From Thermoanaerobaculia bacterium (GTDB lineage Bacteria; Acidobacteriota; Thermoanaerobaculia; Multivoradales; Multivoraceae): a DNA stretch of 64,000 nt. Both the position numbers and the translations under genes were made by a program. Below, one piece after another: positions 9,426 through 31,834 of the stretch (position 1 is its first letter; each line of letters begins with the position of its first letter). Under the pieces are notes generated by a model. It ran no database searches. It had not been told where the DNA came from and was given only the letters and a program-made list of their open reading frames with translations. Location: positions 22,458 through 86,457 of the forward strand of contig JAJDUI010000026.1 in the NCBI GenBank assembly GCA_022826745.1, given 5' to 3'.

Positions 9426-10112
9426 TCACGACGTGGCGGTCAGGGCAACGGCGAGCGCGGCCACCGCGGCCGTCTCTGTCCGCAGCACACGGGGTCCGAG
9501 GTGCGCCGGAATCGCCCCACGTCCGGCCAGTTCCTCCATCTCCCGCTCGCTGAAGCCGCCCTCGGGGCCCACCACGACCGCTTCCGCCGATCCCGCGACG
9601 GCCATGAACGGCGTCGCGGCGCCGGGATGCAGCGCCACCGACCCGGCCCCGATCGGCGCCTCCCCGAGCGGGACCGGCGCGCCGATCTCGGGCAGCCAGG
9701 CGCCGCCGCTCTGTTCGAGCGCCGACTTCGCGACCCGGCGCTGACGCTCCAGAGCCCGTTCCGGCAAGGAACGGCTGGTGCGCTCCGAGACGAGCCACCG
9801 CAGCTCGCGCAACCCCAGTTCCGTCGCCTTCTCGACCAGCCAGGCCGCACGCTCCGGGCGCACGGCGGCCACGAACAGCGCCACGCGCCGGGGCGGCTCG
9901 AACACCGGCGCCGCGCCTTCGACCCGCAGCACCGCCCGCCGCGCGGTCACCTCGTCCACCACCGACCAGCGAGCCGCTCCGCGGCCGTCGACGAGGCGCA
10001 CCCGGTCGCCGACCTTCAGCCGGCGCGCTCGGAACAGATGGCGATAGTCGGCGCCTTCGACCTCGACCGTTCCACGGGCGAGATCACAGGCTTCGGCCAG
10101 TAAATGGATCAT
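9426..10112 (-). CDS. rsmE: 16S rRNA (uracil1498-N3)-methyltransferase RsmE
   Basis: 228 aa with a PUA-like N-terminus and a SPOUT C-terminus (VVVGPEGGFSEREMEEL...IPAHLGPRVLRTETAAVAALA). Confidence 0.85.
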   Translation of the reverse strand: MIHLLAEACDLARGTVEVEGADYRHLFRARRLKVGDRVRLVDGRGAARWSVVDEVTARRAVLRVEGAAPVFEPPRRVALFVAAVRPERAAWLVEKATELGLRELRWLVSERTSRSLPERALERQRRVAKSALEQSGGAWLPEIGAPVPLGEAPIGAGSVALHPGAATPFMAVAGSAEAVVVGPEGGFSEREMEELAGRGAIPAHLGPRVLRTETAAVAALAVALTATS

Positions 10113-10122
10113 GTCCGAGGGT

Positions 10123-11292
10123 TCAGGCCTCGGAACCTCGCTCCGCCTTCCCGCCGCCGCCGGCCGCGGGATCCGTGTCCGGCTCGTGTCCGGAGAAGAG
10201 GTCCTTCACTCGGCTGAACAGGCCCCGCTCGTCGCGGATCGTGCCGCCGCCGTCGCCGGAGAGTTCGGCCAGCGCCCGCAGGTGCTCGAGCTCATCCTCG
10301 GAGAGGTCCCGCGGCCTCGGCACGTTGAGCCGCACCTCGACAACGTGGTTCCCGCGGCCGCGGCCATCGATCCGGGGAATTCCCTCGGACCGCAGCACGA
10401 AGGTCGAACCGTGGGGGGTCGCCGGCGGAACCTCCAGTTCGGACGTGCCATGGAGGGTCTCCACGTCCACCGTGCAGCCGAGAACCGCCTGCGGAAAGCC
10501 GATGGTGACCGAGCTCAGGACGTCGGCATCGCGCCGGCTGAACCGTTCGTGCGGCTCGACTCCGATCACCACGTAGAGGTCGCCCGGAGGACCGCCGTTC
10601 CGGCCATGCTCCCCCTCGCCGGGAAGTCGGAGGCGGGAACCGGTATCGACGCCGGCAGGCACCCGAACCTGGATCGAACGCTGCCGCTCTCTCCGCCCCT
10701 GACCCCGGCAGTCAGGGCAGGGATCCCGGATCACGCTGCCCGCTCCGCGGCAGTCGGGACAGGTGCGGGCGACGGAGAAGAAGCCCTGGCTGTACTGGAC
10801 CTGACCGCGGCCGCCGCACATGCGGCAGGTGATGGGACCGGACCCGGGGGCCGCGCCGCTGCCGCCGCAGGTGTCGCAGCGCTCGAGCCGCGGAATGCGC
10901 AGCTTCGGCTCCACTCCGAAGGCCGCCTCCTCGAACGAGATCCGCAGGTCGTAGCGAAGATCCGCACCCGCGCGCCGGCGGCGGCCGCCGGTGCGTCCGC
11001 CGAAGCCGAAGACGTCTCCCAGGATGTCCGAGAAGTCGGCGAAGATCGTGGGGTCGAAGCCGCCGCCGCCCGGAGTGGCCTGGTGCCCGAAGCGGTCGTA
11101 GCGTTGCCGCTTGTCGGCATCCGAGAGCACGGCGTACGCGTCGGCCGCCTCCTTGAACTTCTCTTCGGCGGCGCTGTCGCCCGGGTTGCGATCGGGGTGG
11201 TAGCGGACGGCCAGCTTGCGATACGCCGACTTGATCTCCTGCAGGGTTGCCGAACGGTCGAGGCCCAGGACCTCGTAGTAGTCACGCGGCAT
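10123..11292 (-). CDS. dnaJ: chaperone DnaJ
   Basis: J domain MPRDYYEVLGLDRSATLQEIKSAYRKLAVRYHPDRN, a G/F region, and four CxxCxGxG zinc-finger repeats. Confidence 0.94.
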   Translation of the reverse strand: MPRDYYEVLGLDRSATLQEIKSAYRKLAVRYHPDRNPGDSAAEEKFKEAADAYAVLSDADKRQRYDRFGHQATPGGGGFDPTIFADFSDILGDVFGFGGRTGGRRRRAGADLRYDLRISFEEAAFGVEPKLRIPRLERCDTCGGSGAAPGSGPITCRMCGGRGQVQYSQGFFSVARTCPDCRGAGSVIRDPCPDCRGQGRRERQRSIQVRVPAGVDTGSRLRLPGEGEHGRNGGPPGDLYVVIGVEPHERFSRRDADVLSSVTIGFPQAVLGCTVDVETLHGTSELEVPPATPHGSTFVLRSEGIPRIDGRGRGNHVVEVRLNVPRPRDLSEDELEHLRALAELSGDGGGTIRDERGLFSRVKDLFSGHEPDTDPAAGGGGKAERGSEA

Positions 11293-28772: not shown

Positions 28773-29399
28773 TCAACGACCCTTCAGCAGGTCCAGGAAC
28801 TCCTCCCGAATCGGGCGTTCATGGAAGATGCCCCGAAGCGCGGACGTCACCGTCCTCGCGCCCGACTTCTTCACCCCACGCATCTCCACGCAGAGATGGC
28901 GCGCCTCGATGACGACCATCGCGCCGCGGGGCCGGAGTTCCTCTACCAGAAAGCCCACGACCTGCTCCGTGAGGCGCTCCTGGAGTTGCGGCCGCTTGGC
29001 GTAGAACTCCAGGATGCGCGCGAACTTGGACAGGCCCAGGATCTTGTCGCCGGGGACGTAGGCGATGTGCGCGTGACCGTAGAAGGGCACCAGGTGGTGC
29101 GAACACATGGAGTAGAACGGGATGTCCTTCTCCATCACCATCGCCCGGTAGTTCTCGTCGTTGGGGAAGGTCGTGACCTTCGGCTTGGTCCCCTGATCCA
29201 GTCCCCGGAACATCTCCAGGTACATCTTGGCGACCCGCTCGTGGGTGGTGTCCAGATTCGGGTCGTTCAGGTCGAGACCAAGCTCGACGAGCATCCGACG
29301 CACCAGCTCCGCAACGCGAGCCACACGCTCCCCGTCCCGAACGGCCGGCGCACCATTTTCGTAGGTCGAGACTGGCTCGACCGGTTCCAGAACGCGCAT
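28773..29399 (-). CDS. folE: GTP cyclohydrolase I
   Basis: FYSMCSHHLVPFYGHAHIAYVP and the surrounding FolE core. 208 aa. Confidence 0.93.
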   Translation of the reverse strand: MRVLEPVEPVSTYENGAPAVRDGERVARVAELVRRMLVELGLDLNDPNLDTTHERVAKMYLEMFRGLDQGTKPKVTTFPNDENYRAMVMEKDIPFYSMCSHHLVPFYGHAHIAYVPGDKILGLSKFARILEFYAKRPQLQERLTEQVVGFLVEELRPRGAMVVIEARHLCVEMRGVKKSGARTVTSALRGIFHERPIREEFLDLLKGR

Positions 29400-29456
29400 C
29401 GGCGCATGCTACCGTAGTCGCCGTCAGTCAGAGACCAACAACCAGGACGGAATCCG

Positions 29457-29684
29457 ATGAGCCGAGTGACGATCGAATACTGCGTAATGTGAAACTACCG
29501 GCCCCGAGCCGCCGGTCTGGCGGCTCAGCTGAAGGAGCAGTTCGACCTCGACACCGAACTCGTGGACGGCGGCGGCGGCGTCTTCGAGGTCGCCCTCGAC
29601 GGCCGCCCCGTCTTCTCGAAGAAAGAGCTCGGCCGCTTCCCCGATAACGGCGAAGTCGAGCACGCCGTCGCCGACCTGCTGTAG
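29457..29684 (+). CDS. selW: SelW-like selenoprotein (Rdx family) with in-frame UGA-Sec at codon 12
   Basis: Manual translation: MSRVTIEYCVM-U-NYRPRAAGLAAQLKEQFDLDTELVDGGGGVFEVALDGRPVFSKKELGRFPDNGEVEHAVADLL. TGA at 29490-29492 completes the CxxU redox motif typical of bacterial SelW. Downstream, GGVFEV...FSKK..GRFP is the conserved SelW core. A stable hairpin lies 13 nt after the UGA. Absent from the ORF track because of the TGA. Confidence 0.8.
29506..29526 (+). promoter_or_regulatory. bacterial SECIS-like stem-loop
   Basis: GAGCCGCC-GGUCU-GGCGGCUC is a perfect 8-bp stem with a 5-nt G/U-containing apical loop, starting 13 nt 3' of the UGA. Position and shape resemble bacterial SECIS elements. 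Confidence 0.55.
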
Positions 29685-29736
29685 CGACGCGGCGGAGGAG
29701 GCACCCGTCCGCGGCGGCCGCGGACGTGACGAGGTT

Positions 29737-29772
29737 CGGATGTCGGTGCGCCGGCCTTCCGGCCGGCATCCG
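29737..29772 (+). terminator. GC-rich hairpin between selW-like gene and queD (possible intrinsic terminator or attenuator; no U-tract)
   Basis: cggatg..GCCGGCC-ttcc-GGCCGGC..catccg. A 7-bp perfect core stem with an extended imperfect outer stem. Confidence 0.3.
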
Positions 29773-29798
29773 ATCCCAGTCAACGCTACGATCGGGCC

Positions 29799-30284
29799 GT
29801 GTCCGGCACCTACTCGCTGCGCCTCGGCAAGGAGGACTTCAAGTTCTCCGCGGCTCACTTCACCGTCTTCGGCGAGGGCGAGGCGGAGGCGCTTCACGGA
29901 CACAACTACCGGGTCGAGGTGGAACTGAGTGGTCCCGAGGTGGATGGTCTCGAGTTCCTGGTTCCGATGGCCGCGGCGAAGCGGGACATCCGGGCGCAGT
30001 GCGAGGCGCTGGACGAGAAGGTCCTGCTGCCGGCGGAGTGCCCGCATCTTGAACTCGAGCAAGGTGACACGGTGACGGTGACCCTCGGGCAGCGGCGATA
30101 CGAGTTCCCCTCATCGGAGGTCGTCCTGCTGCCCGCGGCGAACGTGACCGTCGAGGCGCTGGCCCGGTTGCTCTGGCAACGCCTGGCGGACCGATGGGGC
30201 TCTCTTCGCGACCGCGTGGAAACCCTTGAAGTCACCGTGGCCGAGACCCGCGGCCAAAACGCCAGCTACCGACGCAAGTTGTAG
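29799..30284 (+). CDS. queD: 6-carboxy-5,6,7,8-tetrahydropterin synthase / 6-pyruvoyl-tetrahydropterin synthase family
   Basis: SAAHFTVFGEG...EALHGHNYRVEVEL shows the CxxxHGH-type Zn/active-site motif. Sits next to folE, as often seen for PTPS/QueD. Confidence 0.78.
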   Translation: MSGTYSLRLGKEDFKFSAAHFTVFGEGEAEALHGHNYRVEVELSGPEVDGLEFLVPMAAAKRDIRAQCEALDEKVLLPAECPHLELEQGDTVTVTLGQRRYEFPSSEVVLLPAANVTVEALARLLWQRLADRWGSLRDRVETLEVTVAETRGQNASYRRKL

Positions 30285-31573: not shown

Positions 31574-31834
31574 TCAGTCTTGGTCGTGGTCGTGGTCGTG
31601 GCCGTGGCCGCCGCCGGTGTGGCGCCGCCCGTGTTCCCAGGCCGGATCCCGGCGCGCGAACTCATCGAGCTCGCGCGGCACTTCGACGAGAGTCCGGCTG
31701 CGTTCCGGGTCGCAGACATCGTTCTCGCACTCGTAGACGTAGACGTTCCAGTCGTCGCGAGGGCGGTAAGCGCAGAGCGTCTGGTAGGTGTCGCAGTAGC
31801 CGCACTTGATCGAGAGGTTGCGGATGTTGATCAC
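31574..31834 (-). CDS. small cysteine-rich protein (putative Zn-ribbon) with His/Asp-repeat C-terminal tail
   Basis: VINIRNLSIKCGYCDTYQTLCAYRPRDDWNVYVYECENDVCDPERSRTLVEVPRELDEF...GGGHGHDHDHDQD. Strong GC3 codon bias despite N/I/Y/K-rich composition argues for real coding. CxxC..C..CxxxxC arrangement. GTG start. Located 48 nt downstream of the TlpA-like gene. Confidence 0.6.
   Translation of the reverse strand: MINIRNLSIKCGYCDTYQTLCAYRPRDDWNVYVYECENDVCDPERSRTLVEVPRELDEFARRDPAWEHGRRHTGGGHGHDHDHDQD
31582..31608. repeat. hexanucleotide microsatellite (GGTCGT)3 plus a degenerate unit
   Basis: Encodes the HDHDHD tail of the small protein on the minus strand. In-frame repeat. Confidence 0.6.

Follow-up and report, generated by a model that had tools for sequence, protein, structure and literature searches.

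Organization of the locus

The window, as the whole stretch of 64,000 nucleotides analysed here is called, has a GC content of 69% and a GC3 of about 0.9. Between a GTP cyclohydrolase I gene and a PTPS/QueD-family gene (Table 1) it holds an interval in which the list of open reading frames contains a 40-residue frame starting with GTG (29562-29684) and antisense frames, and nothing else. The plus strand of this interval reads ATG...TGC GTA ATG TGA AAC TAC...TAG, the TGA being at 29490-29492 and the TAG at 29682-29684. The full-length frame is missing from the list owing to the TGA, as the first-pass annotation of this DNA had pointed out, and reading through that codon gives the 75-residue protein which it had proposed (MSRVTIEYCVM*NYRPRAAGLAAQLKEQFDLDTELVDGGGGVFEVALDGRPVFSKKELGRFPDNGEVEHAVADLL*, where the first asterisk marks the TGA). 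The Met start is kept in all close orthologs. When the window was screened for other reading frames interrupted by TGA, this gene was left as the sole clean case.

The same annotation had placed the gene between folE and queD. The identity of folE was borne out by its Pfam match, and the gene on the other side could be assigned to the PTPS family, which is the level at which the name queD can be supported.

Table 1. Features of the SelW-like locus in the window, and selB genes on related Thermoanaerobaculia contigs (positions are those of the window or of the contig named)
Feature	Position	Strand	Evidence
GTP cyclohydrolase I gene (folE), divergently transcribed	28773-29399	-	Pfam PF01227, E=1.3e-63
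Shine-Dalgarno-like AGGA, 9 nt 5' of the ATG at 29457 (putative)	29444-29447	+	direct reading of the sequence
SelW-like (Rdx family) selenoprotein CDS (predicted), 75 aa, Sec12 in C9-V-M-U12	29457-29684	+	translation, Pfam, NCBIfam, PDB relatives
In-frame UGA, probably read as selenocysteine	29490-29492	+	column TGA in 83/84 copies
SECIS-like hairpin within the CDS	29506-29526	+	fold, covariation, third-position pairs, GGT codon, fdhF apical match
PTPS/QueD-family gene, downstream	29799-30284	+	Pfam PF01242, E=1.1e-20
selB, contig L044	15348-17327		
selB, contig L106	6001-8049		
selB, contig L107	6001-8043		
selB, contig L108	6001-8061		
selB, contig L109	3919-5979		

Protein family and redox motif

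The profile searches with the 75-residue protein were run with U replaced by C. The Pfam family Rdx (PF10262) was matched with an E-value of 1.3e-19 and 70.5 bits (cutoff 22.6) over profile positions 1-73 of 74. Two NCBIfam models also scored above their cutoffs, namely NF041051 (SelT/SelW/SelH family (seleno)protein, 95 bits, cutoff 88) and TIGR02174 (CXXU_selWTH, 62.5 bits, cutoff 34.2). The protein is therefore a member of the SelW/Rdx family by these profiles, which is the family first suggested for it. Moreover, seven solved Rdx-family proteins (PDB 3dex, 2fa8, 2ljk, 2ojl, 2oka, 2obk and 2p0g) were aligned over residues 3-75 with E-values from 1e-9 to 3e-6.

In the alignments with the solved proteins Y-C-V-M-U of the window protein falls on Y-C-x-x-C, and U12 takes the second Cys column of the CxxC motif; it is aligned with this same Cys in the Cys homologs. 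The CxxU redox motif expected near the N-terminus is thus present as C9-V-M-U12. The relationship with the solved proteins makes a thioredoxin-like fold the predicted one, and because the CxxU motif stands in a thioredoxin-like family, thiol/selenol redox chemistry is suggested for the product, which is most likely a thiol/selenol oxidoreductase.

The solved Cys-containing Rdx proteins (SAV_2001, 3dex; Atu0228, 2fa8; 2ojl, 2oka, 2obk and 2p0g) differ from the window protein in having Cys instead of Sec and in their length of 103-108 residues, which is about 25-30 residues more. The position of the CxxU or CxxC motif is also common to eukaryotic selenoprotein W and to MIEN1 (C17orf37, 2ljk), which belong to the same Rdx fold family. 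In eukaryotic SelW the SECIS element lies in the 3' UTR and works together with SBP2 and eEFSec, whereas the SECIS-like element of the window is inside the coding sequence.

Conservation of the UGA codon

A scan of species-representative genomes for orthologs gave 80 loci. The window's own clade, with genomes labelled Thermoanaerobaculia, Holophagales or 'Ca. Multivorans', accounts for 36 of them at 81-99% identity. The remaining loci come from other Acidobacteriota and from metagenome-assembled genomes labelled Gemmatimonadota, Planctomycetota, Fibrobacterota, Bacteroidota, Ignavibacteria, Denitrovibrio, Chondromyces and Rhodospirillales. Counted, like the hairpin pairs below, without weighting for phylogeny, 83 of the 84 gene copies in the window and L001-L084, which come from at least seven phyla, have TGA in the Sec column. 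The only other copy has TGC and is found in tandem with a TGA paralog. TGA also stands in this column in L103 and L106-L109, and the Cys homologs of the protein have TGC or TGT there.

The orthologs share conserved residues before and after the TGA, namely IEYCxx upstream and NYxPRA downstream. The Val at position -2 from the UGA is encoded by four synonymous codons across the orthologs with the residue unchanged, which indicates that the N-terminus is translated. All 11 codons 5' of the TGA proved to be conserved, as is the TGA itself across phyla. As judged from these comparisons the protein is under purifying selection both before and after the UGA.

Sec-form (TGA, CGM-U-GY) and Cys-form (TGC) paralogs were also seen side by side on unrelated contigs, in L055 at about 10001-10600 and in L099 at about 70-586.

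A protein search returned many matches with 82-96% identity that are only 51 residues long and start just 3' of the TGA (P0001-P0019), as well as relatives of full length in which the Sec column holds C, W or G. W is found there in P0005, P0012, P0021, P0025 and P0027, and the 'W' of P0005 is TGA in its DNA (L103). The public calls for this family are systematically wrong in that they either start at a TTG or ATG 3' of the UGA or render the UGA as Trp. The G belongs to P0024, from an NCBI assembly (L104, 202-423), and is a genuine Gly codon, GGA, within CVVGTY. This homolog keeps five of the seven core pairs of the hairpin described below and may be a degenerate or non-redox derivative.

The hairpin downstream of the UGA

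The hairpin is composed of a 5' arm GAGCCGCC (29506-29513), a loop GGUCU (29514-29518) and a 3' arm GGCGGCUC (29519-29526). The first-pass annotation had described a perfect 8-bp stem with this loop starting 13 nt after the UGA, at the place where bacterial SECIS elements sit. The coordinates and the fold agree with that description, and Escherichia coli fdhF likewise has its stem-loop in the coding region, shortly after the UGA. Counted from the U of the UGA, the loop of the window hairpin occupies positions 25-29. In DNA of 69% GC its stability is unremarkable (z = -1.43, 18 of 200 shuffled sequences folding equally well), and the significance of the hairpin therefore rests on the comparative data and not on its folding energy.

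Since the SelW-like sequences stay in register for about 20 codons 3' of the UGA, it was possible to score an alignment without gaps for 59 distinct sequences. The 8-bp stem is paired in 82.8% of the cells of this alignment, and shifting the 3' partner by 1-3 columns lowers this value to 21-54%. Both sides have changed in six of the eight pairs, and the covariation score is 0.181 compared with 0.070 in shuffled alignments, none of 500 shuffles being as high. The hairpin is thus conserved at the orthologous loci, in register and with covariation. The outermost pair is confined to the window's clade, and the conserved core comprises 7 bp (29507-29513 with 29519-29525). Within the loop the second base is an invariant G and the next base is U in at least 90% of the 59 sequences.

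The gene might encode a selenoprotein while its hairpin is a mere by-product of the peptide Ala-Ala-Gly-Leu-Ala-Ala and not an element that recruits SelB. The unremarkable folding score is in keeping with this, and so is the composition of the core, where the fixed first two letters of the Ala codons (GCN) dictate four of the seven pairs, so that only the three pairs at third codon positions can inform on selection at the RNA level. These three are formed in 60/61, 61/61 and 41/61 of the Sec-form sequences, whereas pairing at random would be about 0.47 given the third-position composition of the genome, and they show compensatory switches from CG to UA and from CG to GC. The two nearly invariant pairs in particular argue against a by-product. 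Moreover, the synonymous entropy of the stem and loop codons is 0.24-0.54 bits, and it reaches 1.5-1.8 bits at the neighbouring four-fold sites beyond them. The Gly codon of the loop is the rare GGT in 50 of 57 sequences despite the GC3 of about 0.9, and no alternative stem-loop is conserved downstream.

The Cys forms give a further contrast. All 61 Sec forms have NGU or GGG as codon +8, and this limitation on the amino acid at +8 is found in the Sec forms only, the Cys forms having ATT, AAG, GCG, AAT and others. Distant Cys forms, of the PRAIDAQKAIL type, form 0-2 of the 7 hairpin pairs. Those Cys forms that have TGT and are nearest to the Sec forms (L100-L102) share the peptide and still carry the hairpin, which would suit a by-product, but is also as expected from recent Sec-to-Cys conversions. 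The contrast between Sec and Cys forms is suggestive, the Cys control being small (nine sequences with the same peptide, and only 12 Cys-form loci from a pattern search of metagenomes). Taken over the orthologs the hairpin is conserved beyond what the protein sequence requires, which is the mark of constraint on the RNA as far as alignments can reveal it, and there is only a slim chance that the peptide alone accounts for it.

In comparison with the SECIS element of E. coli fdhF, the apical sequences are AGGUCU in fdhF and GGUCU in the window, and the G and U that are conserved in the loop among the SelW-like orthologs have their counterpart in the GU of the fdhF loop. The loop of fdhF lies at positions 22-25 from the U of the UGA, so that the loop of the window is 3 nt, or one codon, further away. 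The window stem is a perfect GC-rich helix without the bulged U, unlike that of fdhF. The hairpin of the window is proposed to be a SelB-binding element.

Rfam contains no family that corresponds to this kind of bacterial SECIS. None of its families reached the gathering score over the whole window, and a permissive search of 29440-29800 gave only irrelevant matches below threshold. A covariance model of the hairpin only (R1), built from SelW hairpins, finds the SelW site by construction (36.7 bits). Its next best match in the window has 19.7 bits and is antisense within another gene, and the model pointed to no further selenoprotein genes there. E. coli fdhF was not detected with R1.

Reading of the UGA codon

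An in-frame stop, the lack of any call by ORF finders and a window devoid of Sec machinery are what a pseudogene would present, that is, a Cys-form Rdx gene killed by a nonsense mutation from TGC or TGT to TGA. However, the TGA is held in nearly all copies of several phyla with a conserved protein on either side, the codons 5' of it vary synonymously while the residues remain, and the downstream hairpin is under constraint at the RNA level. A pseudogene is effectively refuted because these comparative features would not persist in one, and it can be given very little probability.

The UGA could also be a true stop, the product being a short C-terminal protein (the 51-residue form initiated at TTG or the 40-residue form initiated at GTG) and the upstream part being either untranslated or an 11-residue leader. 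The public calls for close orthologs are just such 51-residue proteins, and the 40-residue ORF alone still passes the Pfam cutoff for PF10262 with 32.8 bits, although it covers profile positions 40-73 only. Against this, the codon of the window at which the 51-residue form would start is CTG (29529-29531), so that this form cannot be called here, and this is why no gene has been called at the site. The truncated forms would also lack the first strand as well as the family's defining CxxU/CxxC motif. Furthermore the N-terminal IEYCxx is conserved as protein with synonymous change, and full-length Cys homologs exist. A short product is accordingly as improbable as a pseudogene.

The least credible reading is an altered code that assigns UGA to Trp (code 4) or Gly (code 25) and not to Sec, as the W of some database homologs and the genuine Gly codon of L104 might suggest, but it is refuted by the use of TGA as the stop of 31 of the 46 confidently predicted genes of the window, from which the standard code follows, and it is also at odds with the 'W' form being TGA in the DNA and translated by the gene caller, with homologs that have Cys and not Trp in this column, and with the genome being that of a 69% GC member of the Acidobacteriota, which is not a lineage known for code 4 or 25.

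The conserved TGA, the conservation of the protein around it and the standard use of stop codons together exclude a pseudogene, a short product and a recoded UGA. We are therefore highly confident that 29457-29684 is a functional gene for a SelW-like selenoprotein of the Rdx fold in which the UGA stands for selenocysteine and the hairpin serves as the SECIS element. In the mechanism proposed for this selenoprotein gene the ribosome would start at the ATG at 29457, and at the UGA at 29490 selenocysteine would be inserted in place of termination. SelB-GTP-Sec-tRNA(Sec) would be recruited by the mRNA hairpin at 29506-29526 in the role of a bacterial SECIS, and the product would be a thioredoxin-like protein of 75 residues with a redox centre at Cys9-x-x-Sec12. 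The insertion of Sec, the binding of SelB and the redox activity are what we infer from the conservation described above.

Selenocysteine-decoding machinery

The first-pass annotation had noted that none of the selABCD genes lies in the window. In agreement with this, tblastn with E. coli SelD, SelA and SelB and with Thermoanaerobaculia SelB and YqeY gave no match in the 64 kb, and ARAGORN predicted no tRNA-Sec in the window, in 60 loci or in L106-L109. Nor were selA, selB, selD or a tRNA-Sec found within 10 kb on either side of the gene in the 36 closest genomes. As the window itself holds no Sec machinery, selA, selB, selC and selD are presumed to lie elsewhere in its genome.

Related contigs bear on this point. 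In a Thermoanaerobaculia metagenome-assembled genome (L044) a SelB of 659 residues is encoded 5 kb downstream of the orthologous SelW-like gene, and altogether selB was found 2.5-5 kb from a Sec-form SelW-like gene in five Thermoanaerobaculia contigs (L044 and L106-L109; Table 1). The last four were found through SelB anchors alone, independently of the search for SelW-like genes. Their gene order is GWxTD, folE, methyltransferase, an uncalled gap, glycosyltransferase, PTPS, YqeY and SelB, and in the uncalled gap stands a SelW-like gene whose Sec column is TGA and which has the same hairpin, GCCGCC-GGUCU-GGCGG. The presence of selB near the gene in these contigs means that the Sec-decoding trait co-occurs with it in close relatives. 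Among the matches listed in a search for SelB homologs, the protein was widespread in Thermoanaerobaculia. This lineage of Acidobacteriota (Thermoanaerobaculia, Ca. Multivorans-like) very probably decodes selenocysteine, which bears on its trace-element ecology.

ARAGORN also reported an 89-nt 'tRNA-Arg (gcg)' on the minus strand of the window at 9882-9970, whose anticodon is at position 36. This call falls within a predicted coding region of high GC3 (9426-10112, minus strand) and has no Rfam tRNA match at threshold. The coding overlap and the lack of Rfam support make a false positive probable, and the call was rejected as a tRNA-Sec.

Relation to known selenoproteins

The family of SelW-like selenoproteins, its CxxU motif and the in-frame SECIS element are already known, with descriptions going back to the mid-2000s. 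In the Sargasso Sea the SelW-like (CxxU) family outnumbered all other selenoprotein families of prokaryotes, with 48 genes (PMC1088965), and it did so again in the GOS survey, where Sec forms numbered 427 and Cys homologs 56 (PMC2398784), which is the reason why the gene is regarded as of a known kind. SelW-like proteins are also present in sequenced bacteria, and Acidobacteria have already been listed among the organisms with selenoproteins (PMC1794560). The window protein is like the bacterial SelW-like proteins of these surveys in its family, its motif, its small size and the stem-loop directly 3' of the UGA, and the excess of Sec over Cys forms in GOS is matched by the 83 Sec forms among the 84 copies found here. 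No essential difference was seen. On the basis of its sequence the gene is a standard member of a known selenoprotein family with a standard, if still candidate, bacterial SECIS, and the understanding of selenoproteins is unchanged by it.

In the literature searched we found no description of the host lineage (Thermoanaerobaculia, Ca. Multivorans-like Acidobacteriota) or of the folE/PTPS neighbourhood, and no paper on 'Candidatus Multivorans'. The practical use of the result is a correction of annotation: in the window's clade the SelW-like gene is missing or has been entered as a fragment of 51 residues, and some metagenome records render its UGA as Trp.

Genomic neighbourhood

In all Thermoanaerobaculia/Multivorans loci folE adjoins the SelW-like gene. 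The PTPS gene lies within about 2 kb of it in most Acidobacteriota loci, and not in the other phyla. The typical order in Thermoanaerobaculia is GWxTD, folE, the SelW-like gene and PTPS/QueD, to which one sub-lineage adds YqeY and selB. The neighbourhood of folE, PTPS and a TRAM-methyltransferase gene is conserved in the Acidobacteriota loci and absent from other phyla, and because of this limited distribution it is treated as inherited gene order. The linkage with folE and PTPS was for the same reason rejected as a clue to function. It is unlikely that the selenoprotein is a dedicated redox partner of the GTP cyclohydrolase I/6-carboxy-tetrahydropterin (7-deazaguanine or pterin) pathway. If it were, this would be the first physiological role for the bacterial SelW-like family.

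The spacer between the SelW-like and PTPS genes contains a GC-rich inverted repeat (29737-29772) that is present in the nearest relatives only. It was dropped as a candidate since it is no more stable than shuffled sequences (z = -1.2) and is not conserved past these relatives. Directly 5' of the GTG start of the PTPS gene there is a box, ACGCTACGATCGG (29783-29795), which hardly changes across 10 genomes, in contrast to the remaining spacer with its variable length and sequence. This box may be a promoter or a translation-start signal.

Further downstream, on the minus strand at 31574-31834, an ORF of 86 residues without Pfam match encodes several Cys pairs (CGYC, ECENDVC) and a tail rich in His and Asp. 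A called gene of 78 residues, likewise without Pfam match, corresponds to its position in the near-identical contig L001. In the window this ORF lies between a Redoxin-family gene and a TRAM/U5-methyltransferase gene.
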